64,000 bases of DNA from Patescibacteria group bacterium (GCA_041665505.1 JBAYIR010000006.1:1707-65706); one strand, 5' to 3'. Shown: positions 7,491 through 64,000, numbered from the stretch's first letter. Notes: generated by a model not told the origin, from the sequence alone. Numbers and translations are program-made.

Positions 7491-7497
7491 AAATCTA

Positions 7498-9828: not shown

Positions 9829-9866
9829 CTTAAAATAAAAATTTAATTAATTTTGGGCTTTTAATA

Positions 9867-9895: not shown

Positions 9896-9903
9896 ATTTT
9901 GTT

Positions 9904-9933: not shown

Positions 9934-9962
9934 GGTACACTCACAGCTTTTTTAAGGAGGCC

Positions 9963-33661: not shown

Positions 33662-34465
33662 ATGATGTCTGGTAAAAACAAACAAGGTTTTACTATGGTG
33701 GAGTTGATTGTTGTCGTAGCCGTACTTTTAGTTTTGTCAGCGGCTGTTTTTAGCTGGATTGATCCTTTAGCTAGAGTGGGCGAGGCCAAAAATAAAAGAA
33801 GAATCCAAGACATAAATCTTTTGTCAGCCGCTTTGGCAAATTATGCCACTGCTCATGAGGGGGTCTTACCAGTTTTGGGCTCAATAAGCACTAATAAAAA
33901 AGTTTTATGTTCGGTCCAAGGAGGGAGTAATCTTAGTTGTGCGGGAGTCAGCCAGCTTTGTTTGACAGTGGACGATGATTTTTATAAATATTTAGGAGCC
34001 TTACCATATGACCCAGATAAGACTTCAGCGGTTGATACTGGTTATTATTTACAAAAAGATGCCAGCAATAATTTGATAGTTGGCTCTTGTGCAGCGTACA
34101 ATTCAGAAGTAATTACTAAAAAGCCTAACTTGAAAGTATCTTGCCCGGCTTATGGGGGAGGTTATTGTTGGTATGCTGCAACGGAAGATACTATAAATTG
34201 TAATCAAGTTTGCTCCAACATTAATTTAGATTGTGTTGATGGAGCCAAAGCCATCTTAGATGTAGATGCCGGAGGTAATCCATTTTGTGCTCTGCAAAAA
34301 AATATAAGTGCTAGTTATTGTACAGCTGGTTGTGGTTTGTCTACAGCAGTAGGCTTCCCACCCATGTTTAATTCTCAACCAGCTTGTGATGTTCAAATAA
34401 CAGGCCCTTTAAATTGTGAGTTTGTTATGGATCAGGGAGACTCTCCAATTTGTCCTTGCCAGTAA
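33662..34465 (+). CDS. type IV pilin-like protein (prepilin N-terminal methylation motif) with a Cys-rich C-terminal domain
   Basis: 'KQGFTMVELIVVVAVLLVL' is a class III signal with Glu at +5. The C-terminal ~200 aa contain about 17 cysteines. Confidence 0.6.
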   Translation: MMSGKNKQGFTMVELIVVVAVLLVLSAAVFSWIDPLARVGEAKNKRRIQDINLLSAALANYATAHEGVLPVLGSISTNKKVLCSVQGGSNLSCAGVSQLCLTVDDDFYKYLGALPYDPDKTSAVDTGYYLQKDASNNLIVGSCAAYNSEVITKKPNLKVSCPAYGGGYCWYAATEDTINCNQVCSNINLDCVDGAKAILDVDAGGNPFCALQKNISASYCTAGCGLSTAVGFPPMFNSQPACDVQITGPLNCEFVMDQGDSPICPCQ

Positions 34466-37600: not shown

Positions 37601-38274
37601 AAGCCGTTTTGATATTGGATACAGACGGTGACGGTCTGTCTGATGACCTAGAAAAATATTATGGCACCGAGATAAACAATCCTGATACAGACGGTGATGC
37701 TTATAATGACGGGTTAGAAATTAAAAGTGGTTTTGATCCTTTAGGTCCAGGGGCTTTGTTAAAAACCAGAATAGATTTAGATAAGGTACTTTTAGATGAT
37801 GAAAAAAAATTGGAACAACCAAAAATTAAGTCCAAGAAAATAGACAAAAAAATGGCAGTGGAAGATGTAGTTGTTTCTCCAGAAGAGTTTAAGTTCAGTG
37901 GCAAGGCCGAGCCAGACACTTGGGTTAATATTTATTTATATAGTGCTTTGCCTTTGGTTATGACTACCAAGACAGACGCTAGTGGTAACTGGTCATATGA
38001 TGTCAAACACTCTATAAGTGATGGTCATCACAGGGTTTTTGTGACCGTCAACGATGACACTGGAAAAATAGTCAAACAATCTAGACCAATTTCATTTTTG
38101 ATCAAAGAAGCTCAAGCCGTAACAGCTGACAATTATTTTGATCAGAGTTCTGGCCAAACAGCTGTCAAAAATTCATTTATCTATTATATATTAGGAGGAG
38201 CTTTCTTAGTCTTTTTAGCTCTAGGAGTCATTATATTTCTTCACAAAGGCAAAAACAAAAATTTGGAAGTATAA
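34693..38274 (+). CDS. giant cell-surface protein (1193 aa) with N- and C-terminal TM anchors and TSP3-like Ca-binding Asp repeats
   Basis: Signal/TM at the N-terminus, 'DTDGDGLSDDLE...NPDTDGDAYNDGLE' repeats, and a C-terminal TM 'FIYYILGGAFLVFLALGVIIFL'. Confidence 0.6.
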   Translation: MILDRIQRYLSLAFFTSLVITQALIFVAVSASNNNNQLPVVFVEPSSENIEPKQAFYFQAMISQDKLSFDSINFHLVSPALGVDQMYEASLQADGSYKAQSIFDASLYPAGAYYLSLRAYDYENDIPVAIYDSLPQLINISGTYQAAAQDGVPTAISIANFNLPLANSVLNPQVDSQMEIEFSVGGSTARDLNALSFVIHSSAGSDGQTQEVYTSREISGVASADGTEIYSDTVDISNFSDGDYVINISSNLPDVNSLSIFFISFSICRDCDQVVQDLSSLTLDISSPLAGANITSNNLNVIASSSAILPANYTYLAEMKYRQNGVVFGTYELATTASNPLIFSTNINLLSQNIPSEDGLAPLNLVYLSGNYDLSVYLVESGGVRRLVDSQVVTLSLDTDVPEPVYEISLANLSPVSNGDLLDLNFTTSWSASNFQFSLVNLDDPTIALESTIALVGSGTSWSRQISAQEANLTNGRYSLSATASDTLGHSAQLDPITFSWNITQENVAIDPNQVTLTVYQPSSGQLGLGGMLFASANILDVEFILRSVGDTNLGHTLAHNYISCSDQTILSQEVRERAALLGHQYCFYSLISDDIAGQIINGNYNFFVQHVALDFTAQSGAVLLTYFNADNQNIEEPSEILLKINNNFVYGGDKRNIIFYIMSNIDNALRSIIFYIENSKGELISDYTFSKRDWAQTAMLKEDYPATPYLYAHDINISEEGRVFLEDGDYNVYAKILSLDDKEVLAESNKVSFKVKDGKAVNNETENIDKTEETPDVTTSTASQNSAVANNKIAIDFYSTCIEQGINNEQSCSRFRATMDLLDDTCVEQGIYEAVACEDYLYRIKTDLECQENKIIDKEECKNYLLEKYGGQVDCQLEDRNLCDNILRNEYLNRLVAGQRLSQNISRATDSWLGKNISTKELSNLLQESGVDSKKALPLLASQDIKVLVARAQKEVVLEEKDKLTILNQAVLILDTDGDGLSDDLEKYYGTEINNPDTDGDAYNDGLEIKSGFDPLGPGALLKTRIDLDKVLLDDEKKLEQPKIKSKKIDKKMAVEDVVVSPEEFKFSGKAEPDTWVNIYLYSALPLVMTTKTDASGNWSYDVKHSISDGHHRVFVTVNDDTGKIVKQSRPISFLIKEAQAVTADNYFDQSSGQTAVKNSFIYYILGGAFLVFLALGVIIFLHKGKNKNLEV

Positions 38275-41954: not shown

Positions 41955-42029
41955 GCTCCTATAGTTCAACGGATAGAACAGCGGCCTTCTAAGCCGTAGA
42001 TGTAGGTTCGATTCCTACTGGGAGCACCA
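41955..42029 (+). tRNA. tRNA-Arg: tRNA-Arg (anticodon TCT), CCA encoded
   Basis: Cloverleaf folds by eye. 7-bp acceptor GCTCCTA/TGGGAGC, D-stem GTTC/GAAC, anticodon stem GCGGC/GCCGT with loop CTTCTAA, T-arm GTAGG-TTCGATT-CCTAC, discriminator A. A TTGACT-17-TATACT promoter lies upstream. Confidence 0.8.
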
Positions 42030-42082
42030 CTCGATTCACTTTGTTCGCTCGTGGTCTTCGACCATTTGATTATGTAATAAAA

Positions 42083-42157
42083 TTATTTATATGGTGCCTA
42101 TGGTGTAGAGGTAACACAGCAGGTTGTGGTCCTGTTATCGAGAGTTCGATTCTCTCT
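42083..42157 (+). tRNA. tRNA-His: tRNA-His (anticodon GTG) with genomically encoded G-1 and CCA
   Basis: G-1 pairs with discriminator C73. Acceptor GTGCCTA/TAGGCAC, D-stem GTGT/ACAC, anticodon loop TTGTGGT, T-arm GAGAG-TTCGATT-CTCTC. Confidence 0.8.
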
Positions 42158-42282
42158 AGGCACCCCATAAGAGCTTCTCGCGTAAGCGAGGAGTTTTTGT
42201 ATTGTTTAAGTAGCAATAATGTAAAATATACCTTACGTAAAGTAAATTTGACATTATGTTTCTAATACTATATCATAAAACT

Positions 42283-42504: not shown

Positions 42505-42850
42505 AGAGATTATTATTAGTTTAGTTTTAGTGGTGTTGATCATTAGTTTTTTGGATCCTTTTATGCTTTGGATGCCCTCTCAGATTTTAATGATGGTTTT
42601 GTTTGGACTAGTAGTTGTTTATATTATCTATACAGTTTTTCTTTGGCGTGAGCAAGCTAAAGATGAAAGAGAAGAGTTACATCGCTTGCTGGCTAGTCGT
42701 TATAGTTGGTTAGCGGGGTCAATAGTATTGATAGCAGCGGTTATTGTTCAAGGTTTGAAGCACGACATTGATCCTTGGATATTATATAGTTTATTAGTCA
42801 TGGTTTTAGTAAAAACTATAAGCAGAATATATGGTTCATTTAAGTATTAA
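42485..42850 (+). CDS. small membrane protein co-transcribed with the XRE regulator
   Basis: 3 TM helices, overlapping the XRE stop. This matches the typical XRE plus membrane-partner arrangement. Confidence 0.45.
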   Translation: MTKKIFKEIIISLVLVVLIISFLDPFMLWMPSQILMMVLFGLVVVYIIYTVFLWREQAKDEREELHRLLASRYSWLAGSIVLIAAVIVQGLKHDIDPWILYSLLVMVLVKTISRIYGSFKY

Positions 42851-42875
42851 TTTAATAAATATTAAGAAAAAATAT

Positions 42876-43451
42876 ATGAAGAAAATATATAAACAGGAAG
42901 GCAATACTGCATTAATTGCCATAATTCTAGGCTTGATTATTATTGGTGGTGGGGCTTATCTTCTGTTAAATAAATCAAATAATAATCAAGCCTTAGAAGA
43001 GCAAGAAAAAGCTATGATGCAGGAAGAAAATTCTAAAAAAGATGAGGAAACTATGGAGGAAAATAAAAATGCTATGATGGAAAATACTAACATCAATATA
43101 AACACTAATGATTCCATGATGGAAGAGGATAAAATGATGGCTGAGGCTGGTGCCTATGTCAGTTATAGTCAATCTGCTTATGAAGCTGCTAAAGACAAAA
43201 CTAGAATTTTGTTTTTTCACGCTACTTGGTGTCCAACTTGCAAAGCAGCCAATGCGGATTTTGAAGCCAATTTGGATAAAATTCCTACTAATGTTTTTTT
43301 ATTCAAAACAGATTATGATAAGGAGACAAGTTTAAAACAAAAATACGCTATTACTTATCAGCATACTTTTGTTTTGGTAGATGCTAGTGGTCAGGCTATC
43401 AAAAAATGGTCAGGCGGAAGCATTGATGAGTTGATAAAAAATATTTTATAA
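42876..43451 (+). CDS. membrane-anchored thioredoxin-fold protein
   Basis: N-terminal TM and a Met/Glu/Asn-rich linker. 'FHATWCPTCK' is a CxxC thioredoxin motif. Confidence 0.6.
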   Translation: MKKIYKQEGNTALIAIILGLIIIGGGAYLLLNKSNNNQALEEQEKAMMQEENSKKDEETMEENKNAMMENTNININTNDSMMEEDKMMAEAGAYVSYSQSAYEAAKDKTRILFFHATWCPTCKAANADFEANLDKIPTNVFLFKTDYDKETSLKQKYAITYQHTFVLVDASGQAIKKWSGGSIDELIKNIL

Positions 43452-43460: not shown

Positions 43461-45140
43461 ATGTTAATTCTCATTATATTTGCTTTTTTCGGTGGCCTGA
43501 TAACAATTTTATCACCATGTATTTTACCAATCTTGCCAATCATACTGGCTGGGTCAGTCGGTAGTGGCAGGCGGAAGCCTTTTGGCATTGTTAGTGGTTT
43601 TATTTTGAGTTTTACATTTTTTACTCTTTTTTTGACCGCTATAGTACAGGCTACTGGTATTTCAGCTGATAGCTTGCGTTATATTTCTATATTTATTTTG
43701 ATTATTTTTGGTCTTACCTTGGTCTTACCAAGTATTCAAGCTCGTTTTGAACAATTGATCAGTAAATTTTCACTTAAGCCAAAATCTCAAGGAGAACACC
43801 ATGGTTTTGGTGGCGGTATGATTATTGGCTTTAGCCTTGGTTTATTATGGACGCCTTGTGTTGGTCCAATATTAGCTTCAGTTATATCTTTAGCCTTGAC
43901 CGGCACTGTTACTGGTAGTGCCTTTATTATTACTTTTGCCTACTCTTTAGGTACAGCTTTGCCTATGCTAAGTATAATCTATGGCGGTAGGCAATTACTT
44001 AATAAGGTGCCTTGGTTACTGCAACAAGGAGCTTTGATACAAAAGATTTTTGGTTTGATTATGATTATTATGGCTCTGCTTATTTATTTTAATATTGATC
44101 GCCAGTTTCAGAGCTATATTTTAGAAAAATTTCCTAATTATGGTTCACAATTAACTGGCTTGGAGGACAATGATATGATTAAAAAAGAATTGAATAATTT
44201 ATCACAGCTAGACAGTCTAAATAAAGCAGATAATTTAGCTCCAGAATTAGTAGTTGGTGGTCAATGGTTAAATTCTCAAGCCTTGAGTTTAGCGGAGCTA
44301 AAGGGCAAGGTAGTTTTGTTAGATTTTATGACTTATTCTTGTATCAATTGCATTCGTACTTTTCCTTATCTACAAGCTTGGCACGAATCTTATCAAGATA
44401 ATGGCTTGGTGGTTATTGGTTTGCATAGTCCAGAATTTGAGTTTGAAAAAAATCCAGAAAATGTAAAGAAAGCTTTAACAGAATTTGGTATAACTTTTCC
44501 AGTGATGCAGGATAATGATTTTGCTACTTGGAAAAATTACAATAATAAATATTGGCCACATACTTTTTTGATAGATTATAATGGTCAGATAGTCTATGAT
44601 CATATTGGGGAGGGAAATTATGATGTGACTGAAGCTAAGATCAAAGAGTTATTAGAGCAGAGACAAGAGGCCTTGGGTGAAGTAAATAGTATTGAAAAAA
44701 AATTAGTCATGCCTACTGATCAGTTAAATACTTTACCCCAAAGTCCAGAAACTTATTTTGGTTCTAGTCGCAACAATCTACTGGCTAATGGCAAATCTTT
44801 AACAGAGGGTATTATGGACTTTGAAATGCCTAGCGATATAAAAACTAATCGTTTATATTTAGTTGGTAAATGGCGCATCTATCCAGAATATGCAGAAAAC
44901 ATAGATAACGATGCTAAAATTATATTTTCTTATTCAGCTAAAAAGGTTTTTTTGGTAGCTGGTGCTGACCAAGCTGTGGATTTGAAGATCAAACAAGATG
45001 GTCAAGATATAGCTGATCATATTAAAGTATCTGATGAACAGCTCTATACATTGATTCAAAATAGCGCACCTGGCAATCATACTATAGAGATTATTCCTCA
45101 GTCAGCTGGTTTTAGGGCTTTTACCTTTACTTTTGAATAA
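43461..45140 (+). CDS. DsbD/CcdA-family transmembrane reductant transporter fused to a thioredoxin-like domain (DipZ-like)
   Basis: N-terminal 'LSPCILP' and 'WTPCVGP' CcdA cysteines in a polytopic domain. C-terminal redoxin 'MTYSCINCIRTFP'. Confidence 0.7.
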   Translation: MLILIIFAFFGGLITILSPCILPILPIILAGSVGSGRRKPFGIVSGFILSFTFFTLFLTAIVQATGISADSLRYISIFILIIFGLTLVLPSIQARFEQLISKFSLKPKSQGEHHGFGGGMIIGFSLGLLWTPCVGPILASVISLALTGTVTGSAFIITFAYSLGTALPMLSIIYGGRQLLNKVPWLLQQGALIQKIFGLIMIIMALLIYFNIDRQFQSYILEKFPNYGSQLTGLEDNDMIKKELNNLSQLDSLNKADNLAPELVVGGQWLNSQALSLAELKGKVVLLDFMTYSCINCIRTFPYLQAWHESYQDNGLVVIGLHSPEFEFEKNPENVKKALTEFGITFPVMQDNDFATWKNYNNKYWPHTFLIDYNGQIVYDHIGEGNYDVTEAKIKELLEQRQEALGEVNSIEKKLVMPTDQLNTLPQSPETYFGSSRNNLLANGKSLTEGIMDFEMPSDIKTNRLYLVGKWRIYPEYAENIDNDAKIIFSYSAKKVFLVAGADQAVDLKIKQDGQDIADHIKVSDEQLYTLIQNSAPGNHTIEIIPQSAGFRAFTFTFE

Positions 45141-45214
45141 ATAATTTATTGGGTTAATTTCGGGATACTATATTGCAATTTACCCCAATCTAGGGTTCAG
45201 AATTCATCCCACAG

Positions 45215-45262
45215 TGGATCCCATCAAAAAAGCACTTAATAATTTAAGTGCTTTTTTGTTTT
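45215..45262 (+). repeat. terminator-module repeat, copy A (CCCATCAAAAAAG-hairpin-TTTTTTGTTTT)
   Basis: GCACTTAA-taat-TTAAGTGC hairpin plus a T-tract. The 5' context matches that at 45984 and 46938. Confidence 0.5.
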
Positions 45263-45275
45263 AAATAATTTTATA

Positions 45276-45737
45276 TTACATAATCATATCAGGTGGAGGT
45301 AGACCTGGATCATCTGATTCAGATGTTAAAAATTTACCTAGTTTAGTCTTACCAAATTTAGAGACTTTGATTGTTTCAACAAGACCTTGTAGAGCAAGAG
45401 CTGTGCCGCCACCAAGCCCAGCAACTCCGCCAAATACTAATGCTAATTCATTTGAAGGCGCTCCACCTAAAAGTTGTTTCATTGCATAACCGCCTCCTAA
45501 AATACCAAGAGAACCAAATATCAACATTAATTTACCTTTAATAGATTTTGCTTCTACCTCACTAAATTTTTCTGGGTCAGCTTGGTCTATTAGTGTGGTG
45601 ACTTCTTCTAGGTTATTTACAAAGGCAACTTCTTCTCTCTCAATCTCATTTTCTATTGTTTCAGTTTGATTTTCAGGATTAATAGGCATTTCTGGTGGTG
45701 GTAAATTTGGATATAATTTTTCTTCTTCAAATCCCAT
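45276..45737 (-). CDS. hypothetical protein with a Gly-zipper membrane segment
   Basis: 153 aa with an acidic N-terminus and 'GGGYAMKQLLGGAP...GGVAGLGGG'. A possible 42-aa ORF lies upstream at 45769-45894 (-). Confidence 0.4.
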   Translation of the reverse strand: MGFEEEKLYPNLPPPEMPINPENQTETIENEIEREEVAFVNNLEEVTTLIDQADPEKFSEVEAKSIKGKLMLIFGSLGILGGGYAMKQLLGGAPSNELALVFGGVAGLGGGTALALQGLVETIKVSKFGKTKLGKFLTSESDDPGLPPPDMIM

Positions 45738-45983
45738 ATTTTTATAATTTAGTTTCTAATTCACTCTTTAATTCCTTAATAATTTTATTAAGTTCTTTAA
45801 GGTAGGCCAACTTTTCTTCTTTAGAAGCAGTACCATTTTTTAATTTTTCCGCAAGTTTTATAAGATAATTGTTTGTGTCCATATTTTTTATATTTATATA
45901 CTTTTTATAGAATACCAAAAATAGCTAAATAAGTAAACATTATCTAATTCTCTAAACATCTTAGTCCCGATAGCTTTTACTAA

Positions 45984-46030
45984 GTTGCCCCATCAAAAAG
46001 TGAGCTAACATTAGCTCGTTTTTTGTTTTG
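45984..46030 (+). repeat. terminator-module repeat, copy B, followed by an extended -10 promoter (TGGTATAAT)
   Basis: 'CCCCATCAAAAAGTGAGCTAAcaTTAGCTCGTTTTTTGTTTTGTGGTATAAT'. Confidence 0.55.
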
Positions 46031-46062
46031 TGGTATAATTATTATGTTATTAAAATAAAAAT

Positions 46063-46881
46063 ATGAAAAAAACATTCTTATTTTTAGTATCAATTTTTTT
46101 ATTATTTAGTAATTATGTCTTAGCTGCACCAGCGCCACATGTTTTAGTAATTAATGACCAAACAAAACAATGCGATTCTTTTTGGGCTGGTGATGAATTT
46201 GGAGGTTATGATTTAAATAGCGGTTGGGAAGGATACATGCCGAAAGTTTATTATTACATTGATACCCCTTTTGGTACTTGTCCTATTGTAGATGGTTCGT
46301 CATACCAAGACTGTTGTAAACAATTAGGATTGAAAACTATTGATTATAAACAAATTCCTTTTTCAGGTGAGGAATTTTATCTTCCTGGTTCGGATAAATC
46401 TAAAAGGGACGATGGCCCATATAGGTGTGTAATTAGTGATTTTGTTAGATTAAGTAAGTATACTGGAATTTCTGTAAATCAATCTACAAGAGAATGTACC
46501 GCTGAACTTAACTATTATTTTGTAAAAAAAACTAAAGATGGGGAAGTGCGTAAAAACGGCGCTTCGTATGAGTGTTTAGCTAATGTTAGAGATTGGCATA
46601 TATATCGTGTTAACAATGATTTAACTAAGAGAGTTTATGAAACTCCTTACGGTAATTGTGAGTTGACGGACACAATTAGAGATCAAAATTGTTGTGAAAA
46701 ATTTAGTTTGACTTGGGCTAGCGGCGCTTCATTCGGTGCATACCACAAGGCGCCCCTAAGTTTTTTACTTGATAATAATATTATTCAATTTTTGTATTAT
46801 TTTTTGCCACTTCTTTTTATATTAATAGTTATTTTTATTGTAATTGTTATTAGAAAAAAACGTTCTAATAAAAAATTATAA
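46063..46881 (+). CDS. secreted Cys-rich protein with a C-terminal TM anchor
   Basis: Signal peptide, about 14 Cys, and a C-terminal 'FLYYFLPLLFILIVIFIVIVIRKKR'. Confidence 0.5.
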   Translation: MKKTFLFLVSIFLLFSNYVLAAPAPHVLVINDQTKQCDSFWAGDEFGGYDLNSGWEGYMPKVYYYIDTPFGTCPIVDGSSYQDCCKQLGLKTIDYKQIPFSGEEFYLPGSDKSKRDDGPYRCVISDFVRLSKYTGISVNQSTRECTAELNYYFVKKTKDGEVRKNGASYECLANVRDWHIYRVNNDLTKRVYETPYGNCELTDTIRDQNCCEKFSLTWASGASFGAYHKAPLSFLLDNNIIQFLYYFLPLLFILIVIFIVIVIRKKRSNKKL

Positions 46882-46937
46882 GTATCACAATTTAATACTA
46901 TCCCAATCAAAAGTTATAAAAGTATTCCATAGAGGAC

Positions 46938-46985
46938 CCCATCAAAAAGTGAGCTAATCCTAGCTCGTTTTTTGTTTGCTATAAA
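46938..46985 (+). repeat. terminator-module repeat, copy C, followed by an extended -10 promoter (TGGTATAAT)
   Basis: About 50 bp nearly identical to copy B. Confidence 0.55.
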
Positions 46986-47025
46986 ATAGTGGTATAATAA
47001 ATATATTAAAAATTTAATTTAAATT

Positions 47026-47928
47026 ATGAAACTATTTAAAAACCAAAAGGGATTCAATGACACTATAGTAGTAGCCATACTAGGAGGTATAATAGGGGCT
47101 ATATTTATTACAGGAGTTTTTGTTTGGCAGGAAATAGATAAACAAAAAGAACTAAATAGTTTAATAAAACAAATTGTCCATGTCTCTAATTCCAATGAGA
47201 CGTCTATTGTACAGGGGAATGATGGTACTTTAGAGGAAGAAAGTTTAAAACCAGAGGAAGTTTTTGGGGAGATGATGATTGCTGCTAAAAATGTTGATGT
47301 TGATAAATATTTTTCTTATGTATATTCATCAGCCAGTTTTTTAAAAGCAGCAAAAGAAATGGCGGCATTATATCCTGATATTAAAGAACTTAGTTTAGAA
47401 AATACACTGGTAAGTCAATTCAATAATTTAGAATACACTATAGATAATGTTGAAATAAAAGATGATATAGCAGTATTAAAAGTTAATATCGTTAAAAATA
47501 ATCGTCAAAAAAAGCCTCAGTATTTTAATTTAATAAAAGATAAGGGGGAGTGGAAAATTAATAGCTATGGATGGATGCATCCGGCTGATGGGATAGTGGA
47601 AAATTTGGATGCTTGTAGGGAAATTTGTGACAGTAGCCCAATGTTTGTTGAGAATACCAATGAATGTTTTTGTTTTAGAGAAAAGCCATCGGTGGTAGAT
47701 TTATCTTATTTAGAAGTTGAAAGATGTGAAAATCAGGAAATTCCGTTTAGAAGTACTTGCTACATATCCTACGCAAAAGAAACTTTAAATGAAGAGTATT
47801 GCAAAAAAACTAGTCTGATGAATATGAATGATTGTTTTAGTACATTAGCACTTATTAAAGATGATGATGCCATATGTGATTATTTATTGGATGATGAACA
47901 GTGCTTAAATGGCGTGGCAAATAATTAG
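47026..47928 (+). CDS. membrane-anchored Cys-rich protein, paralogue family member 1
   Basis: N-terminus 'MKLFKNQKGFNDTIVVAILGGIIGAIF' is shared with 48371. The C-terminus is Cys-rich. Confidence 0.5.
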   Translation: MKLFKNQKGFNDTIVVAILGGIIGAIFITGVFVWQEIDKQKELNSLIKQIVHVSNSNETSIVQGNDGTLEEESLKPEEVFGEMMIAAKNVDVDKYFSYVYSSASFLKAAKEMAALYPDIKELSLENTLVSQFNNLEYTIDNVEIKDDIAVLKVNIVKNNRQKKPQYFNLIKDKGEWKINSYGWMHPADGIVENLDACREICDSSPMFVENTNECFCFREKPSVVDLSYLEVERCENQEIPFRSTCYISYAKETLNEEYCKKTSLMNMNDCFSTLALIKDDDAICDYLLDDEQCLNGVANN

Positions 47929-47978
47929 AAGACAAAATAGATTTTTTTACTTAAAGTATTAATATTAAATATAAAATT

Positions 47979-48332
47979 ATGAAAAAAATTATAGTATTAA
48001 TAGGTTTTATATTTCTATTATCAGGATGTTCTCTTCCTTTTGTCAATAATAAAAAAGAAGGAGCTTCGGTAGAGAAGTTTAGTAAATGCGTTTTAACTAG
48101 TCGTTATGCCAATAGGGCAGAAGATATTTATATTGATATAGGGGAAGACTGTAATATCTTATTAAATGAGACGGAGTGTTCACAATATTGTAAGATAAGT
48201 CAAGATTGTCAGGCAGGTAGTCCAGCTACTCATTGGGCTTTGGACAGAGAAGTGAGCAGCCCAGTTCTAGCTGTAGGCTCAGTTAAAAATATAAATGAAT
48301 GTTGGTGTAGATGTGAGGCTTTAAGGGATTAA
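47979..48332 (+). CDS. Cys-rich lipoprotein
   Basis: 'LLSGCSL' lipobox, 117 aa, 10 Cys. Confidence 0.5.
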   Translation: MKKIIVLIGFIFLLSGCSLPFVNNKKEGASVEKFSKCVLTSRYANRAEDIYIDIGEDCNILLNETECSQYCKISQDCQAGSPATHWALDREVSSPVLAVGSVKNINECWCRCEALRD

Positions 48333-48370
48333 TATTTGTATAAATATTTAATGATTATAAATTAAAAATT

Positions 48371-49096
48371 ATGTTTAAAAACCAAAAGGGATTCAATGAC
48401 ACTGTAGTAGTAGCAATACTAGGAGGAATAATTGGAAGCATATTTATTATGAGTGTCTTTGTTTGGCAGGAGGTGAAAAAGACCAATGATATGAGTTATT
48501 TTTATAATAAGGCGTCTGCTATTATCAAAAATAACAATAAAGTATTAGAAGAGTCACTTAAAGAAAATAAAAGTGATAATATAAAATTTGTCAGCAATGA
48601 GCTAGGTATTTCTTTTGAGTATCCAGATAGGTATGGTGAAGTCAAAATAAATTTTTCTGATTATGGAGATGATGCAAATGCTGCAGCTAGCGGAAAATTA
48701 TTTATGGGTACTTTTAGCAGCGAGACAGATATAGTGTTTGGGGGCACTTCATTAGATTTTCAGGCAGGTAGAGGAGGTTCTATTACAGATTCACAAGGCT
48801 ATACTTTTGAAAATGATAAATACTACAGTAGGATGCCTGGTTTAAAAAAGCGCATAATTGCTCCAATATCAACTTTAAATAATAATAGCAATATAATTTT
48901 GGTGATAAGTGATAATAGTTTTAGTGATAGTTCTGGTATAAGTGGTTGGGGTTTAGTTCCTAATACGAGAGCAGCGCTTATTAATTTTGAAAGTGACAAT
49001 GAGTATGCGGGTATGGCTATTTATAATAAAAATACAAAGAATATTAGCGAGGGTGAATTTGAAAAAATTTTAGTCTCTTTTGATTTCTTAGATTAG
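48371..49096 (+). CDS. membrane-anchored protein, paralogue family member 2
   Basis: N-terminal ~37 aa are about 85% identical at DNA level to 47029-47140. Confidence 0.5.
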   Translation: MFKNQKGFNDTVVVAILGGIIGSIFIMSVFVWQEVKKTNDMSYFYNKASAIIKNNNKVLEESLKENKSDNIKFVSNELGISFEYPDRYGEVKINFSDYGDDANAAASGKLFMGTFSSETDIVFGGTSLDFQAGRGGSITDSQGYTFENDKYYSRMPGLKKRIIAPISTLNNNSNIILVISDNSFSDSSGISGWGLVPNTRAALINFESDNEYAGMAIYNKNTKNISEGEFEKILVSFDFLD

Positions 49097-49258
49097 TTTG
49101 ACTCAAAGGTGAAAGTATTAAATACTAAAAGTGGCATTTCAGATGCTTGGAATGTCACTTTACGAAATGTCGCCCCACAAAACAGTCTTCCTCTGGGAGG
49201 GTGTTTTTGTTTATGGTTTTTTGATATAATAAACTTAATATCATTTAAATTAAAAAAT

Positions 49259-49882
49259 ATGGATGTAAAAAATAGTCCGGCAACACATTTTATTGTTAGT
49301 TTTTTTTCATTACTCTTGGTGCTTATTATGCATTTTTTGTTTAATATAGAATGGACAACATCTTTTGCTCGTACAGCCTTTATTCTCTTATTTCTCATTC
49401 TCATTATCGGACCTTTAGTTAGAATAAAAGTTCCCAGCAAAAAAATGTCCCCTATGATGAATCCATGGAGCTGGCGGGGTGAATTGGGTATTTGGTTTAG
49501 CATTATGGCTCTAGCTCACTTTACATTACTACTTATTGAGCAACCACTTACACAACTAATAAAAATTGGTGGATCTGGATATAGCCTGGCAAATTTTATT
49601 GGATTAATTGCCCTGATTATATCAATAATATTATCCTTTGCTTCTTTTGGAAAAGTAATTAAATTTTTAGGCGTCATATCATGGAAATTATTACATACTC
49701 TGACTTATGTAGTTTTTTATTTAGTAGCTTCTCATTTGATTTATTTTCAATTTTTCTCAAGCTACGGAGAGGTAGGCCCTGATTGGTTTGGGTGGACATC
49801 GGTTGTTGCTATGAGCTTAGTCGTTATATTACAGATAATAGCTTTTGTTAAAATAGTTAACCAACAAAATAGAATCCGATAA
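49259..49882 (+). CDS. polytopic membrane protein
   Basis: About 6 TM helices. An internal ATG at 49259 is preferred over the overlapping track start at 49109. Confidence 0.45.
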   Translation: MDVKNSPATHFIVSFFSLLLVLIMHFLFNIEWTTSFARTAFILLFLILIIGPLVRIKVPSKKMSPMMNPWSWRGELGIWFSIMALAHFTLLLIEQPLTQLIKIGGSGYSLANFIGLIALIISIILSFASFGKVIKFLGVISWKLLHTLTYVVFYLVASHLIYFQFFSSYGEVGPDWFGWTSVVAMSLVVILQIIAFVKIVNQQNRIR

Positions 49883-51399: not shown

Positions 51400-51960
51400 A
51401 TGGAAAATAATGAATTAGCGTTAATTTATGCCTGCCAGCGTGGAGAGGCTGAGGCTTTTGGTCAAGTTTATGAGAAGTATTTTAAAAAAATATATAGTTT
51501 TGTTTACTATCGAACTAGTCACAAAGAAAGCACCGAAGATTTAGTTTCCTTAATTTTTAGCAAAGCTTTAGAAAATATCAACAAATTTCAAAGTAGTAAA
51601 GGGAGCTTTTCTTCTTGGTTATATAAGATAGCTAGAAATACAGTGATTGATTATTACAGGGGACATAAAAATATTCAAAATCTGGATGATATAGAAGATC
51701 TTTCTGACTTCAGTGATATCTCAGATAATATGGATAGAAAAAAAGCTTTATCAGATATCCAAAACAAGCTCGCTCAGTTAAGTTCTAATCAAAGGGAAAT
51801 AGTAATTATGCGTGTGTGGGAAGATTTATCTTATAAGGAGATTGCAGAAATAGTTGGTAAATCAGAAGCTAATTGCAAAATGATTTTTTCTCGGGGTATT
51901 AAAGAGCTTAGATTGTCTCTAGCTAGCCTAATTTATTTAGTGATGATGTTAATAGATTAA
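51400..51960 (+). CDS. ECF-type RNA polymerase sigma factor
   Basis: Region 2 'FSFVYYRT...DLVSLIF' and a region 4 HTH 'LSYKEIAEIVGKSEANCKMIFSRG'. Confidence 0.7.
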   Translation: MENNELALIYACQRGEAEAFGQVYEKYFKKIYSFVYYRTSHKESTEDLVSLIFSKALENINKFQSSKGSFSSWLYKIARNTVIDYYRGHKNIQNLDDIEDLSDFSDISDNMDRKKALSDIQNKLAQLSSNQREIVIMRVWEDLSYKEIAEIVGKSEANCKMIFSRGIKELRLSLASLIYLVMMLID

Positions 51961-51964
51961 ATAT

Positions 51965-53380
51965 ATGGATAAAAATATAAAAAAAATTTTAGAAGACTTG
52001 TATTCTCTTGATCAAAGTTTAAAAAAGCACGAAAATGAGTTGTTAAAACTCATTGAGGAGTTGATAGCCTCTAAGCCAAAAATAAAGTTTGATGAAAACT
52101 TTAAAAAGGAGCTTTATTTGGAGCTTTTAGAAAAACTAGATCAATTAGAAAATAAAAAAAATAATTTTAATTTTATGAAAAAACTAAATTATGCTTTCGG
52201 AGCTTTAGGAGTTTTACTTTTAATACTCATACCTACATTATTAAAAAATAAACAGCCTATAGCTAATAATATAAATGTTAATAGACCAGATGATTTTAAG
52301 GTACAAATAGCTAAGTTGGACAAAAATGCTTTTGGACCACTCCTAGCTAATAACATAGAACCACAAAGAGAAGCTGTAGCTGGTTTTGGTGGGGGAGGAG
52401 GAGTGGCTATGGACAGCCCCAAAATGGCAGCTGGCTCGGATATGATCTGGCCAGGGCCAATGGCTTATAAATATGTTTATGTCGGAGAAGATTTCTCAGT
52501 TGATGGCTTGGATATGGCAGTTCTTAAAAAAATAAATGGCTTAGCCTCTCAATCACAAGGGGCACAAATTTTACAGAATTTGAATTTTGATAATATAAAT
52601 TTGCAGTCTTTAGATAATGCCAAACTGAGGAATTTTACAGTGTATGAAGATAAGGATTTTGGCTACTCAGTCAATGTAGATTTTTATGAAGGGATGATTT
52701 CTATCAATGAAAATTGGGAGCGTTGGCCAAATAATATAGAACTCTTAGAGCGAGTTATGAAAATTGATGATATGCCAGCTGACGATAAGCTCATAGCTAT
52801 GGCTGATAAATTTTTGCAGGATAGAAATATCAATGTCAGCACTTATGGCAAGCCTTTAGTTGATAATACTTGGAGATACAATTATGAGAAATATGCTGAT
52901 AGTGGAGAATTTATGGTGCCAGATATAGCTACTGTTATTTATCCTTTATTGATAGAAGGCCAAGAGGTCTATGAAGAGGGTGGTGAAATACAAGGTTTGA
53001 GAGTGTCTATCAATCTTAGACACCAGAGAGTCAGTGGTTTGTGGAATTTGACTAGCCAAAATTATCAGAGCTCTGTATATGATATGGAGACTGATGTAGC
53101 CAAGATATTGGAGCTGGCTTCTAAAGGTGGTGCTTATTATCCTTTTCCAGAAGATAGTAATACGGAGTTGATAGAAGTAAAAATAGGTACACCACATATC
53201 GCCTATACTCAGATTTGGAGTTTTGAGAATAATGTTAATAGTCAGCTTTTGGTACCAGCTCTTGTCTTCCCAGTGACAGAAATTCCAGAGCAGGCCCAAT
53301 ATTTCTATAAGAAAAATGTGGTCATTCCATTAGCTAAAGATATACTTGGTCAGAGAATGGAGATATTGATGAAGAGTTAA
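51965..53380 (+). CDS. putative anti-sigma factor (cytoplasmic N-terminus, single TM, large extracytoplasmic domain)
   Basis: 4-nt gap after the sigma gene. TM 'LNYAFGALGVLLLILIPTLL'. Confidence 0.45.
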   Translation: MDKNIKKILEDLYSLDQSLKKHENELLKLIEELIASKPKIKFDENFKKELYLELLEKLDQLENKKNNFNFMKKLNYAFGALGVLLLILIPTLLKNKQPIANNINVNRPDDFKVQIAKLDKNAFGPLLANNIEPQREAVAGFGGGGGVAMDSPKMAAGSDMIWPGPMAYKYVYVGEDFSVDGLDMAVLKKINGLASQSQGAQILQNLNFDNINLQSLDNAKLRNFTVYEDKDFGYSVNVDFYEGMISINENWERWPNNIELLERVMKIDDMPADDKLIAMADKFLQDRNINVSTYGKPLVDNTWRYNYEKYADSGEFMVPDIATVIYPLLIEGQEVYEEGGEIQGLRVSINLRHQRVSGLWNLTSQNYQSSVYDMETDVAKILELASKGGAYYPFPEDSNTELIEVKIGTPHIAYTQIWSFENNVNSQLLVPALVFPVTEIPEQAQYFYKKNVVIPLAKDILGQRMEILMKS

Positions 53381-53457
53381 AAATAACTATAGCAAAAAAT
53401 CCCCCAGCTACGTTTGACGTGGCTGGGGGATTTTTATAACTAACTTAAGTTTTAATT

Positions 53458-54756
53458 TTAATCGTCTTTTTTGCTTTGTTTTTTGATTTTGATTTTTTCT
53501 ATCTTTGATAATATATTATCTTTTTTGTCATGACGGTCATAATGATCATCTTCGTCATCTTCATCTTCGTCATCTTCATCATCGTGGTCATTATTAGCTT
53601 TTCTTGTCAGCGTAGTTATAGAAATTATATTAGAGTCGCTAGACATATTACCAGCCTTATCATAGGCTCTGACAGTGTAAGTATAAGTAGTAGCTGGATT
53701 TAAACCAATATCATTGAAGTGATTTCTTTTCACAGTAGCGATTTTGATGCCGTCTCTAAAAATTGCATAGCCTTTAATACCTTTTTTACGCTCAGGAGCT
53801 TTCCATTTTAAATTGACGTGTGTATAGGAAACAACGTGAGCTTTGAGTTTTCTAGGGGCATTAGGAGCTGTGTTATCGCCAGAATTTTTTAGAGTGGTGG
53901 CTGAGGCAATATTAGAATTAGCTGACATGTTACCAGCACCGTCGTGTGCTTTGACAGTATAACTATAAGTAGTTGAGGCTGTTAAACCAAGATTGTTGAA
54001 AGTGTTGCTGGTAACTGTAGCGATTTCAGCACCATTTCTAAAGATAGAATAACCAGTGACAGCGACATTGTCTGTAGAAGTTGCCCAAGTCAAATTTATT
54101 TGGCTAGTGGAGATTGGGTTAGCTGTTAAATTGGTAGGTGCACTAGGGCTAGTAATATCTGTGGAAGTGGTTAAAGTCGTAGCGGAAATAGAATTAGAGT
54201 TAGCTGATTTATTTCCAGCGGCATCATAGGCTTTGACAGTATAAGTATAGGTGGTAGAGGCAGTCAGACCAATATTGCTAAAAGTAGTAGTAGCCGTAGA
54301 AGCAATCTCTGTGCCGTTTCTAAAGATAGTATAGCCAGTGACAGCGACATTGTCTGTAGCGGCTGACCAAGTGAGATTTATCTTGGCTGATGAGATGACA
54401 TTGGCTGTTAGGTTGCTAGGAGCAGATGGCTTGGTAGTATCAGCAGTCGTAAGGTTGCCTAGAAAATAATTATTTAATTGGGCATTAGCAGTAGCATTGC
54501 CGCTGTGTTGTCCAGAAAAGGCTGCTGTGCCATTGGTACCACAGAGACTAGTGATAGCCGCTGCTCCACCGGGGTGCTGGGTAATATAGTTTGTGAGGTT
54601 ATATACTTTATTGTTTACTATAACCCAACAATTTGTGCTGGTATTGTGAGCTTGTACTTGTTGTAAAGTATAGCTAGCGGCATTGGCTCTTAAGCCTTGT
54701 GATATTGAAAATATCATTGCTACCAATACTGCAAGTATTGTAAATGTTTTTTTCAT
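53458..54756 (-). CDS. secreted protein: cytochrome b5-like heme-binding domain, 3 fibronectin type III repeats, and a poly-acidic tail
   Basis: Signal peptide. 'CWVIVNNKVYNLTNYITQHPGG' cyt-b5 motif. Three ~90-aa repeats 'P.NLTA...INLTW...DNVAVTGY.IFRNG.EIA'. C-terminal 'DDEDDEDEDDEDD'. Confidence 0.6.
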   Translation of the reverse strand: MKKTFTILAVLVAMIFSISQGLRANAASYTLQQVQAHNTSTNCWVIVNNKVYNLTNYITQHPGGAAAITSLCGTNGTAAFSGQHSGNATANAQLNNYFLGNLTTADTTKPSAPSNLTANVISSAKINLTWSAATDNVAVTGYTIFRNGTEIASTATTTFSNIGLTASTTYTYTVKAYDAAGNKSANSNSISATTLTTSTDITSPSAPTNLTANPISTSQINLTWATSTDNVAVTGYSIFRNGAEIATVTSNTFNNLGLTASTTYSYTVKAHDGAGNMSANSNIASATTLKNSGDNTAPNAPRKLKAHVVSYTHVNLKWKAPERKKGIKGYAIFRDGIKIATVKRNHFNDIGLNPATTYTYTVRAYDKAGNMSSDSNIISITTLTRKANNDHDDEDDEDEDDEDDHYDRHDKKDNILSKIEKIKIKKQSKKDD

Positions 54757-54890
54757 ATTTTTTGTTTATTTTATTAATAATTAGTCTTATATAAATTAAT
54801 ACAAAGTAAATAAAATTTTGTTACACCATTAGACAAAGTTTGATACTTTGCTATAATGGCATTTTATGGTGAAACATTAGTTGCTAATAT

Positions 54891-55391
54891 TTGTATATTA
54901 TTATGAATAGCAAAAGTGACAATTTCATTAGCTATTATGACCAGTTTAAAAATAAAATATTTGTATATTTTTTATATCGGGTCAATTTTAATCGAGAGGT
55001 GGCCGAAGATCTTACTTCGGAAGTTTTTTTAAAAGCTCTAAAAAGTTTTGAAGATTTTGACCAAAGTCGCTCTTTTCAATCATGGATTTATGCTATTGCC
55101 CATAATCATTTGGTCAATTATTATCGGGTAGCCAATAGAGAAACGCAGCTGTTGGAAGATAGATATCTGACCAAAGGTGATATTGATAAAGTAGAGTTGG
55201 AATATGAGCTAGAGGCAATAATGAAAATTATCAAACTAATGGACAGTAGCGATCGGGAAATATTATTGATGAGATTTGTAGATCAACTGAGTAACACCGA
55301 GATAGCAATGCTTTTAGATAAAGACGAAGGAGCAATTAGAACCAAAATCAGTCGGAGCTTGGCAAAACTAAGAGAACTATTAGACAAATAA
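54891..55391 (+). CDS. ECF-type RNA polymerase sigma factor (second copy)
   Basis: Region 2 and a region 4 HTH 'LSNTEIAMLLDKDEGAIRTKISR'. Confidence 0.7.
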   Translation: MYIIMNSKSDNFISYYDQFKNKIFVYFLYRVNFNREVAEDLTSEVFLKALKSFEDFDQSRSFQSWIYAIAHNHLVNYYRVANRETQLLEDRYLTKGDIDKVELEYELEAIMKIIKLMDSSDREILLMRFVDQLSNTEIAMLLDKDEGAIRTKISRSLAKLRELLDK

Positions 55392-55392
55392 T

Positions 55393-56223
55393 ATGGATAA
55401 TTTAGAAAAAAACTTATCAAACTTACCAAAACCATCGCTTAGTAAGCAAGCTGATTTTAAAATTAAATTTAAAATCTATAGTTTTATATTGCACAGTAAG
55501 TTACAAAAATTAGGTCGGGTATTTTTCCGACCATATTCAATGTTGGCTAAGGTTTCTTACACTGCTTTATTAGTGGTGATAATTTTGGGTAGCACAGCAG
55601 TTTATGCTGCCAATAATGATAATATCACACCGGGACATTCTTTTTATCCTTTAAAGAAGACTATTGAAAATGTGGAAGAAAATTTATCTTTTACCAAAAA
55701 TGCCCAAGTAGATACTTTAAATAAAATGTCTGAACGTCGCTTAAAAGAAGCTTTAAATATGGCTCAGGAAAATATTGCAGTGGAGGACACTAGTAGCCAA
55801 GGAGAAAATAATAGCAATATCAAACAAAGTTTGGATGAAGTAGTTGATAATCTAGAAGAGGCAGTAGCTACCTCCAAGGAAATAAGTAATGCCAAATCAG
55901 CCAAAAAAGCCAAAGAGGCTATTAAGAAAAAAAATAAAGATATTATTCAATACTTAGATAATATTGGTGATATGGCAGAGAAAAATCAAGATGAAGGAGT
56001 AATAAATAAAATTGATGAGGCCAAAAAAGCTATTAATAAGTATAATGATGATTTAGACGAGGATAGTGAGAAGGATTCTGAAAGATATGATAGCTTTATA
56101 GAAAATAGGAGAGATAAAAATACTGATAAGCAAAATGAAGATTCGGATAAGGATTCAGAGGATAGAAATTCTAATAATGAATCAGGTAAAGACTCTAGAC
56201 AAGATAGAGAGGACAATGATTAG
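55393..56223 (+). CDS. putative anti-sigma/DUF5667-like membrane protein with an acidic coiled-coil tail
   Basis: Overlaps the sigma gene's stop. One TM and a Lys/Glu/Asp-rich C-terminus. Confidence 0.45.
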   Translation: MDNLEKNLSNLPKPSLSKQADFKIKFKIYSFILHSKLQKLGRVFFRPYSMLAKVSYTALLVVIILGSTAVYAANNDNITPGHSFYPLKKTIENVEENLSFTKNAQVDTLNKMSERRLKEALNMAQENIAVEDTSSQGENNSNIKQSLDEVVDNLEEAVATSKEISNAKSAKKAKEAIKKKNKDIIQYLDNIGDMAEKNQDEGVINKIDEAKKAINKYNDDLDEDSEKDSERYDSFIENRRDKNTDKQNEDSDKDSEDRNSNNESGKDSRQDREDND

Positions 56224-63023: not shown

Positions 63024-63274
63024 ATTTGTTATGTATAAAATTACGACCCGATATTACATCTGGTCGTATAATATATAAAACAAGAGTTTTCGAGTCCAGC
63101 CCACTTAACTACTGGGGCATAATAATCGTGTACTATACACTACAAAACTATATTTGTCAAGAGTAGCTATGATAGCTGTTAATTTGTATTAATTTTAGTG
63201 GCTAGACTAGATTTTTGAAAGTTATTTTTCTGTGTTATAATATGACTACATTATATAATTATTAAAATAAAATT

Positions 63275-64000
63275 ATGAGAATAGCAAAGAGGCTTTCTAT
63301 CATATCATTAGCATTTTTAATGCTAATTACATATTATTCTCCTTTAACCACTACTGCTCAAGCTAGTTATGGTGAAGGATCACTCCTTAAGATAAAGGCT
63401 AACCCAGCTGTTTATTACATAGGAGCTAATGGCAAAAAATATGTTTTCCCAGAGGGTAAAACATATAAGACTTGGTTTGATGATTTTTCTCAAGTGAAAG
63501 AGGTCTCACTTGGTGAATTGGATAGTTATCCTGACGGTGGTGCTATGCCAGCTAAAGGTGGCGTCAAACTAATTACTCATAGTAACACAGCTAAGATCTA
63601 TGCATTGGAAACTGGTGGAATACTGCGACACATACCATCTGAAGCTAAGGCTAGAGAACTTTTTGGTGATGACTGGTATACCAGAGTGATTGATGTCTTA
63701 CCGGGATTCTTTGCCAGCTCATATAGATTGGGTGAAGAGGTGACAGATCTTTTGCCAAATGGTTATTTAGTAACTGATGGCAGTAAATATTACTATATTG
63801 AAAATGGCAAAAAAAGACCAATGACAGAGAAATCATTAAAGCTTAATAATCTAAAAGAAAGTGATGCTTTACGTATTAAAAATATAGCTAAATACGGAGA
63901 TGATGACTCAATATATGAGAGAGAAGAATCATTAGTAAATTTTGTACCACCGATTACAGAATTGGAAGATCAAAAAATTACTATTTGTCATGATAGTCAA
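63275..64000 (+). CDS. secreted hypothetical protein (partial, continues beyond the window)
   Basis: Signal peptide 'MRIAKRLSIISLAFLMLITYYSPLTTTAQA'. Open frame to the window edge. Confidence 0.45.
   Translation, partial: MRIAKRLSIISLAFLMLITYYSPLTTTAQASYGEGSLLKIKANPAVYYIGANGKKYVFPEGKTYKTWFDDFSQVKEVSLGELDSYPDGGAMPAKGGVKLITHSNTAKIYALETGGILRHIPSEAKARELFGDDWYTRVIDVLPGFFASSYRLGEEVTDLLPNGYLVTDGSKYYYIENGKKRPMTEKSLKLNNLKESDALRIKNIAKYGDDDSIYEREESLVNFVPPITELEDQKITICHDSQ

Follow-up and report, generated by a model that had tools for sequence, protein, structure and literature searches.

The stretch described here, positions 45,141 to 49,258, was studied within a 64-kb piece of DNA (the window) from a Patescibacteria metagenome-assembled genome (MAG; GCA_041665505.1). 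Related loci were taken from L007, from L013 and L015 (Candidatus Parcubacteria GCA_002869235.1) and from L008 and L009, while L010 is an independent assembly of the same organism as the window. Patescibacteria, also known as CPR (Candidate Phyla Radiation), have tiny genomes, their cultivated members are attached to other microbes, and their surface proteins are mostly annotated as hypothetical. Scans of the GTDB genomes gave no matches to a protein of 241 amino acids (aa) encoded in the stretch, and only distant ones, at 37% identity or less, to the DipZ-like protein encoded directly 5' of it, and therefore the lineage has no close representative in GTDB. Two features of the stretch are treated below, a hairpin module which recurs between the genes and an N-terminal segment, the anchor, which is common to two of the proteins. 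On balance we take the stretch to be part of a variable cell-envelope gene region located just 3' of a tRNA-Arg/tRNA-His pair.

The plus strand carries four open reading frames (ORFs), with identical gene calls in L010. The first one, at 46063-46881, encodes a 272-aa protein with a signal peptide and a C-terminal transmembrane (TM) helix, recorded at NCBI as WCV71_03990. It is followed by the genes of a 300-aa anchor-family protein at 47026-47928 (anchor residues 1-36, 47026-47133), a 117-aa lipoprotein at 47979-48332, and the 241-aa anchor-family protein at 48371-49096 (anchor residues 1-34, 48371-48472; WCV71_04005). The spacers within 47026-49096 are 38-50 nucleotides (nt) long and hold no hairpin, and the three genes probably form one operon, running from a promoter at 46990 to a terminator at 49185.

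Four modules, all read on the plus strand, were located between the genes. Module 1 (45181-45265, core 45220-45265) consists of a conserved 5' flank, CCCATCAAAAAA, a 15-pair hairpin at 45225-45258 and TTTTTTGTTTT. It is placed between the DipZ-like gene on the plus strand and two minus-strand genes, as a putative bidirectional terminator for both sides. In module 2 (45988-46039, core 45988-46028), CCCCATCAAAAAG precedes a hairpin at 45994-46025, which is followed by TTTTTTGTTTT and then by TGGTATAAT at 46031-46039. Module 3 (46924-46998, core 46937-46977) starts with 18 nt resembling the end of tRNA-His and continues with TCAAAAAG, a hairpin at 46943-46974, TTTTTTGTTT and TGGTATAAT at 46990-46998; it would act as the terminator of the 46063 gene and as the promoter for 47026-49096. 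Module 4 (49170-49230, core 49170-49213) is diverged, with CCCCACAAAACAG, a hairpin at 49185-49202, GTTTTTGTTT and then TGATATAAT at 49222, and may end the 47026-49096 operon and restart transcription for the gene at 49259. It was not among the matches of a covariance model derived from modules 1-3. A further strong hairpin of 15 pairs, AAAGTGGCATTTCAGATGCTTGGAATGTCACTTT, was seen at 49128-49161, in the interval from the stop codon of the 48371 gene to the module 4 terminator; the 96-nt region around it folds at -30.4 kcal/mol (z=-4.4).

The original prediction had placed three modules in this region, two of them followed by promoter-like sequence, and all three were found within a few bases of those places, with the extended -10 element TGGTATAAT present 3' of modules 2 and 3 (at 46031 and 46990). 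Modules 1-3 have hairpins of 14-15 pairs, with an A-run on one side and a T-run on the other, and are terminator-like on both strands; the fold z-scores of the module hairpins range from -2.5 to -4.1. Modules 2 and 3 are 93% identical over 41 nt, and modules 1 and 3 have a further 72% over 50 nt upstream. When CCCATCAAAAAG was searched with at most one mismatch, only three sites were found in the 64 kb, those of modules 1-3, where 0.65 were expected; three sites were reached in 3 of 100 shuffles. We regard the modules as intrinsic, bidirectional terminators, combined in modules 2-4 with an extended -10 promoter, with termination being predicted. Small transcription units follow one another along the region, each ended by such a predicted terminator and three of them restarted by an extended -10 promoter.

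The modules had also been described as punctuating a cluster of genes for secreted proteins, a role which is not peculiar to that cluster. The window contains 17 TGNTATAAT sites, most of them intergenic and directly after a hairpin with a T-run, and the hairpin-plus-promoter layout is a genome-wide intergenic design, not a specific one of the secretome. The distinctive part of the modules is the left flank rather than this layout, as CCCATC before the A-run is absent from the seven other strong terminators of the window. The common layout raises a plain explanation for the modules, namely that they are ordinary terminators and promoters which became alike by functional constraint and local duplication and have nothing to do with tRNA-His or with gene exchange. 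This we consider possible, though doubtful. In its favour, hairpin, T-run and TGNTATAAT succeed one another in the same way in most of the window's intergenic DNA regions, and module 4 and several of the matches in relatives are only loosely similar to the rest. The absence of CCCATC from the seven other strong terminators argues against it, as does the position of two copies where nothing needs terminating: module 2 and its L007 counterpart at 7881, which has the same stem, both lie between divergent genes and have no upstream gene to terminate.

The promoter and leader downstream of the modules, TGGTATAAT-N-GTTATTAAAATAAAAATATG, recur before different genes in the window and in L007. Leaders of the form GTTATTAAAATAAAA(A/T)TATG were seen before unrelated genes at 46042-46062 and 63259-63280 in the window and at 2665-2683, 7953-7972 and 9982-10000 in L007, with no Shine-Dalgarno-like purine run visible in them.

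The modules could also represent small regulatory RNAs, as their genes or 3' ends, or else 3'-untranslated elements with a structure, in which case the flank would be functional and the hairpin would be the terminator. The left flank, about 40 nt long, is conserved across genomes at non-syntenic sites, and module 2 has no upstream gene, which are both in line with such a role. The same can be said of a 35-nt non-coding block, ATACTATATTGCAATTTACCCCAATCTAGGGTTC, with 31 of 35 positions identical between the window (45163-45198, 5' of the module 1 hairpin) and L007 (8383-8419); it stands just 5' of a terminator hairpin in both. However, Rfam searches of the whole window at gathering thresholds and of 45100-49300 at E up to 10 returned two tRNAs and noise only, no convincing conserved fold was found 5' of the terminator hairpin, and the copies are too few for covariation. 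We give very little credence to this explanation.

The covariance model from modules 1-3 found good copies in L013 (4874, 6038 and 9547) and in L007 (3831, 7881 and 5413), and weak matches only, at E about 0.1, in the rest of the window. The modules are not independent of each other; they belong to a repeat family common to related genomes. Conservation across the copies extends to the left flank of approximately 25-40 nt (...TCCCATA..GGATCCCATCAAA) and to the T-run; the stems vary in sequence yet still pair. The left flank ends with the last bases of tRNA-His (...CCCCA), and these are followed by TCAAAA, the hairpin and TTTTTTG.

The link to tRNA-His comes from the best match in L013, 4874-4919, which is the 3' end of a real tRNA-His gene together with its own terminator. 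A 79-nt segment from this tRNA-His end is 81% identical to module 3 over 52 nt (E=1.4e-7) and 82% identical to module 2 over 38 nt (E=5e-5). The alignment spans ...ACCCCA, TCAAAA and stem sequence (ATAGCTAA/TTAGCTAT against GAGCTAA/TAGCTC), and it thereby extends beyond the A- and T-runs, contrary to what is expected of ordinary terminators. Inside the tRNA, the match of modules 2 and 3 comprises ...(A)CCCCA and about 12 further bases only. The 8-mer GCACCCCA was found, among the fetched loci, in tRNA-His genes and one L007 module only. In the window the tRNA-His(gtg) gene (42094-42167, plus strand, ending ...GGCACCCCA) is located 3.0 kb 5' of module 1, with the tRNA-Arg(tct) gene (41955-42029) directly 5' of it, both identified by ARAGORN and Rfam. 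The pair (41955-42167) is syntenic in the window and L013, and the terminator of the pair is a different one in the window. As judged from these alignments, the modules are homologous to the tRNA-His 3' end and terminator of a relative. In L013, a gene for a 91-aa GIY-YIG nuclease, flanked by CACGTG-rich inverted repeats, was observed between tRNA-Arg and tRNA-His (4340-4880); the window has no GIY-YIG gene between the two tRNAs.

The left flanks were also considered as decayed tRNA 3' halves. MAFFT alignments were suggestive, but shuffle tests were non-significant for nine of ten modules; the likeness of the module 1 flank to the tRNA-His 3' half gave p=0.017, a nominal value uncorrected for about 20 tests. 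Since the shuffle tests failed, only the homology of the 3' end and terminator is retained.

The gene content between modules was compared among the window, L007 and L013. The ferric-reductase-like and methyltransferase genes are conserved flanks, with 91% and 79% DNA identity between the window and L007; between them the window has a gene for an SGNH hydrolase, whereas L007 has an anchor-family gene. In L013 the zone is arranged in yet another way, and an anchor gene is found two genes past the methyltransferase. The pair of thioredoxin and DipZ-like genes is absent at the corresponding place in L013, and the neighbour genes differ in the relatives. Because the gene content differs among the three genomes, the zone 3' of tRNA-His is described as a mosaic of small units delimited by modules. 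In L007, a genome of about 30% GC, a block of 45-55% GC (approximately 5480-7870) is bounded exactly by the modules at 5413-5473 and 7881-7938, and another GC-rich block stops at the module at 2578. Foreign GC-rich DNA with modules at its borders is hardly expected if these are ordinary terminators. Blocks of 45-55% GC are also present in L007 at 1-1270 and 1950-2570, and like the large block they carry minus-strand genes of foreign appearance.

The explanation we favour, with some confidence, is an array of envelope-gene cassettes at the tRNA-His end, encoding anchored ectodomains; the products of these cassettes would rather probably be disulfide-bonded, membrane-anchored surface proteins. 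The modules would be displaced or duplicated copies of the junction between the tRNA-His 3' end and its terminator, left behind by repeated insertion or exchange of DNA at the tRNA-His end, which is the simplest mechanism, and they would mark the borders of gene cassettes which differ between related genomes. Homologous recombination between modules after uptake of DNA would account for the data just as well.

Genomic islands integrated at tRNA genes reportedly carry direct repeats of partial tRNA 3' ends and may accrete in tandem. The present locus resembles such tRNA-targeted islands in its intact tRNA-His, in the copies of the 3' end and terminator downstream, in the variable blocks between these copies, and in the foreign-composition DNA bounded by them in a relative. 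It differs from them in lacking an integrase among the annotated genes, in having old, diverged repeats with only about 6-18 nt of tRNA sequence recognisable, and in its very small cassettes (0.7-3 kb), which in the window are of native composition.

Several points weigh against the cassette array at the tRNA-His end. Neither integrase nor recombinase was found among the Pfam-annotated genes of the window at 1-15.5 kb and 24-64 kb and on to the contig end, which would also be expected if the modules were ordinary terminators, and the cassettes of the window show no anomaly in GC composition. The likeness of the flanks to the tRNA body upstream of ...CCCCA is non-significant, except nominally for module 1, and this too agrees with ordinary terminators. 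Hairpin and extended -10 are the general intergenic layout of the genome, and therefore functional constraint could explain part of the similarity between modules. The concentration of modules near tRNA-His rests on three genomes, approximately 150 kb of related sequence. Finally, the topology and the function of the anchor are read from sequence only, and any processing of it, like the mechanism of insertion, is an inference. Integron-like attC sites were considered separately and dropped, since no IntI gene and no R'/R'' core sites were present in the sequences read.

The second feature of the stretch is the anchor. The 47026 and 48371 proteins have a common N-terminus of 36 residues, with a core of 27 identical residues out of 31 and 87% DNA identity over 98 nt, while the rest of the two proteins is unrelated (BLASTP E=3.9), in agreement with what had been predicted. 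The anchor consists of MKLFKNQKGFND, with a basic MKLFKNQKG head and an invariant G-F-N/S-D, followed by a Gly-rich TM helix and VWQE. An exhaustive HMMER search with the 241-aa protein gave 323 matches of two classes. In the first class the ectodomain is matched, and the N-termini are assorted. In the second, only residues 1 to approximately 50-90 are matched, at the start of proteins of 132-582 aa. The anchor is carried by at least 30 clusters (50% identity) with unrelated C-termini, which answers the question of whether further members exist. A word-indexed search with a 51-aa anchor query found a single 49-aa fragment, and the family was seen only by the exhaustive HMMER search. All members that were looked up come from MAGs of Patescibacteria or Parcubacteria and are annotated as hypothetical, except one which is named for its C-terminal DKNYY.

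In 31 members, residues N6, G9, D12, G24, F27, I28, F32 and E36 are invariant, and F10, G21, I22, G30, V31, V33 and W34 nearly so. Their ectodomains match PsbP_2 in six cases, DKNYY in three, DUF6438 in one and an NTF2-like domain in one, and about 20 have no match. The number of Cys residues is even in 29 of 30 complete members, which fits with disulfide-forming extracytoplasmic domains. Genomes carry several members each: two were found in the window, L007 has two within 8 kb, and the Parcubacteria MAG has two and also a mini-ORF. The anchor has three lysines, a hydrophobic stretch of 21-22 residues and an acidic QE/KE after it, and lacks an Ala-x-Ala site; it is therefore predicted to be an uncleaved signal anchor with the N-terminus inside and the C-terminus outside (N-in/C-out). 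Most likely it inserts in this orientation, with the unrelated ectodomains, most of them disulfide-bonded, held at the surface of the cell. A common partner to which the anchor docks, or by which it is processed, is suggested by the invariant polar residues of the head and by the GGxxG face of the helix.

The conserved segment in front of unrelated domains recalls the YSIRK-G/S and KxYKxGKxW signals of Gram-positive bacteria, which are conserved family motifs in the n-region of the export signal of many surface proteins, and the K-x-F-K-x-x-K-G-F of the anchor is loosely similar to the latter. These signals are cleaved by signal peptidase I and belong to wall-anchored proteins. The anchor, in contrast, is without an Ala-x-Ala-type site past the helix, and the YSIRK and KxYKxGKxW models did not match it in NCBIfam and Pfam scans at E up to 10.

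Two small ORFs with little more than the anchor were encountered. In L015, a 61-aa ORF at 9805-9990 encodes a diverged anchor helix only (...ILVGIVGSVFIAGTFVWQEIELEK), directly 5' of the gene for a 582-aa anchor-family protein; it is situated in a copper-handling cluster with Cu-ATPase, multicopper oxidase, MopE-like and DsbA genes. The second, the 49-aa "anchor-only" protein P0001, ends at an in-frame TAA (L001 179-181) which is AAA (Lys) in the sister contig L009. The full-length anchor-family gene behind it has either become a pseudogene or differs here through the assembly or strain variation.

From the common anchor, the original prediction had proposed a cassette system which shuffles variable extracellular domains onto a conserved leader. 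Of this, the part which can be kept is that whole-gene blocks bounded by modules differ between relatives. Active shuffling, by which ectodomain segments would be recombined onto a fixed anchor as programmed surface variation, we consider very unlikely. One conserved 5' segment on many unrelated 3' parts would be expected from it, and anchor-only mini-ORFs, the two described above, do exist. Anchor identities within a genome (87% for the window pair, and 81%) also exceed the 71% between 48371 and its presumed orthologue, L007 p305, a pair with 32% identity in the ectodomain and with housekeeping neighbours at 84-92%. This excess is not robust, because anchor identities between genomes reach 81-86% (47026 against L008 and P0070); gene conversion of the anchor, tried as an explanation for it, is likewise unsupported. 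Moreover, all members seen have start codons of their own, and as a rule promoters too; neither promoterless silent copies nor a repeat where anchor and ectodomain join, or at the 3' ends, was found, nor any recombinase in the part of the window given above. One of the two anchor-only ORFs owes its shortness to the in-frame TAA.

An explanation we hold to be unlikely, though less so than shuffling, is that the anchor is a true, divergent class III signal, cut after Gly9 so that Phe becomes the new N-terminus, with Asp3 in the place of Glu5. The machinery of the type IV pilus, or of a pseudopilus, would then present the proteins, in the manner of modular pilins or of the archaeal bindosome. A class III signal is defined as a short hydrophilic leader ending in Gly (or Ala), followed by about 21 mainly hydrophobic residues with Glu at +5 (PMC8179133), and the leader of the anchor fits this description of the motif: MKLFKNQKG is short and basic and ends in Gly9, invariant in the 31 members, and is followed by Phe or Tyr, an invariant acidic residue and about 21 hydrophobic residues. 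The leader of the window's own pilin reads ...KNKQG/F (the slash marking the cut) against KNQKG/F in the anchor, and an 8-residue insertion in two family members lies N-terminal to G-F, never after it. When the anchor was aligned by hhalign to ten pilin N-termini, a local score of 25.9 was obtained (P=1.4e-5), with D12 aligned to E5; this score was reached by none of 200 column shuffles and by one of 200 segment-wise shuffles, and the reversed control scored 12.3. Nine of the ten N-termini were entered by hand, which counts against this support, and a search with the N-terminus of the window pilin for pilins of the lineage gave no matches.

On the other side, the anchors miss the pilin models PF07963 and TIGR02532 (IPR012902) at E up to 10, whereas the window pilin (33662-34465) matches both (30.3 and 27 bits), and a home-built pilin hidden Markov model (HMM) fails to separate the anchors from other TM anchors (mean -0.7 against -0.8 bits). 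The anchor has no Glu at +5, where Ile or Val is found; its hydrophobic tract is T13-W34, and the only conserved acidic residue is Asp at +3. The modelled ectodomain of 48371 is PsbP/Mog1-like behind a low-confidence linker, with no pilin head, and the anchor genes do not adjoin pilus assembly genes in any of four contexts. Because of the HMM misses, the lack of Glu5 and of a pilin head, and the absence of linkage to pilus genes, the anchor is described as pilin-like in form, and possibly in origin, and not as a member of the pilin family. To class III signals, the modular pilins PilB and PilC of S. sanguinis (PMC8179133) and the Sulfolobus bindosome (PMC3047682), it is alike in that one N-terminal segment carries many unrelated domains; it differs from them in having Asp at +3 and not Glu at +5, no pilin globular module and no linkage to pilus genes.

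A joint interpretation, to which we assign a low probability, would go further. The anchor would be a variant class III signal, G/F-x-D for G/F-x-x-x-E, by which dozens of unrelated ectodomains are displayed with the help of prepilin peptidase and type IV filament machinery, or of some other shared partner in the membrane, and strains would in addition trade cassettes at recombination sites derived from tRNA-His which double as terminator/promoter units. Such a system might be, by analogy, a bacterial counterpart of the archaeal bindosome.

The window pilin itself, 33662-34465, is a bona fide type IV pilin with a C-terminal domain of 16 Cys. At 34693-38274 it is followed by the gene for a Big_13 surface protein of 1193 aa, in which a segment of helical repeats is rich in Cys; this protein ends in a TM helix and a basic tail resembling those of the 46063 protein.

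The proposal that the stretch encodes a cluster of proteins exported or anchored in the membrane is supported. These proteins had been presented as Cys-rich, which applies to three of the four (10, 10 and 9 Cys), while the 48371 protein has none. When the pilin, the 1193-aa protein and the proteins of the cluster were compared all against all by BLASTP, no shared Cys-rich domain reached significance. The 46063 protein has a cleavable-looking signal peptide (VLA/APAPH), kept in homologues of 31% identity, 10 Cys, an internal two-fold repeat, and a C-terminal TM helix with a basic tail. Neither in Pfam nor in NCBIfam was a family found for it. The internal duplication is seen as ...TPFGTCPIVDGSSYQDCCKQLGL... 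and ...TPYGNCELTDTIRDQNCCEKFSL.... In the 47026 protein the anchor is followed by a weak NTF2-like/DUF4878 domain and then by a C-terminal region with 10 Cys. The 300-aa sequence was absent from an exact-sequence look-up and was unretrieved by the anchor query, while the 272-aa and 241-aa neighbours are on record. The Cys-rich lipoprotein at 47979-48332 was recognised as such: its lipobox ...FLLSGC (LLSGC) matches Pfam LPAM_1 with 24.6 bits against a cut-off of 20 (E=3e-5), and with eight further Cys it has nine in total.

Structure prediction of the variable domains was successful for one of the two anchor-family proteins. For 47026, AlphaFold without alignment gave a predicted local distance difference test score (pLDDT) of 39, which is unusable. 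The AF2 model of 48371 (pLDDT 86.8) shows a helix at 10-37, a helix at 41-65 (pLDDT 62-76) and then a PsbP/Mog1-like sandwich. Foldseek matched the ectodomain to BT_1490, PsbP and Mog1p, and homologues match PsbP_2; a profile of the 241-aa family against PDB sequences gave nothing below E=0.17. The modelled fold thus resembles PsbP/Mog1-like domains (PsbP_2; LpqN, Mtc28 and Apa of M. tuberculosis), weakly so by HMM, and differs from them in sequence, with approximately 10% identity and a best Foldseek E of 0.008.

On the 5' side of module 1, a membrane-anchored thioredoxin with a WCPTC motif is encoded on the plus strand at 42831-43451, with a start possibly at 42876 (Pfam Thioredoxin E=4e-11; L010 gene call), followed at 43461-45140 by the DipZ-like protein of 559 aa. 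The latter combines CcdA/DsbD TM, Redoxin and DipZ C-terminal domains, and DsbD_TM, Redoxin and Thioredoxin_10 are all above the Pfam cut-offs (E=7e-27). This is the three-part architecture of M. tuberculosis DipZ (Rv2874), with a membrane thioredoxin encoded alongside, as in CcdA/TlpA pathways; the difference is that the tie of the window pair to the Cys-rich proteins is positional only, with module 1 intervening. Proteins of the DipZ/CcdA type (DsbD/CcdA family) export reducing power, which serves disulfide reduction and isomerisation, not formation. The identity of the pair was borne out by Pfam, whereas the proposal that it supplies the extracytoplasmic disulfide chemistry stands only in part, because such proteins export reducing power; the pair would deliver this for disulfide isomerisation or repair. 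Between modules 1 and 2, two genes are found on the minus strand. The first of the pair encodes a 46-aa coiled-coil-like protein (45742-45882; ORF and L010 gene call), the second a 153-aa protein with Gly-rich hydrophobic segments and no family match in Pfam (45276-45737; also called in L010).

The individual parts of this locus are all of known kinds: intrinsic terminators with extended -10 promoters, envelope proteins which are lipoproteins or carry signal anchors, and the DipZ pair. Two things are new. The first is the anchor family, which is undescribed, strongly conserved and lineage-restricted, with a pilin-like form and a very diverse cargo. An N-terminal tag on at least 30 architectures is a sequence handle for listing much of the surface proteome of one CPR lineage, and a common anchor points to a shared step of insertion, processing or docking. 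The second is the family of terminator/promoter repeats tracing to the tRNA-His 3' end and delimiting variable cassettes. If the modules are indeed scars of recombination at the tRNA-His end, they would account for the way in which reduced genomes maintain, at a single locus, a rapidly changing set of envelope genes, and would give breakpoints which can be searched for in metagenomes. Should neither idea hold, the stretch would be a tidy case of compact terminator/promoter punctuation around envelope genes.

Immediately 3' of the variable zone, at 51400-56223, two genes for extracytoplasmic function (ECF) sigma factors were observed, each followed by a gene without family match, possibly for an anti-sigma factor. 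A gene for a 432-aa protein with fn3 and cytochrome-b5 domains lies on the opposite strand between the two ECF sigma factor genes.

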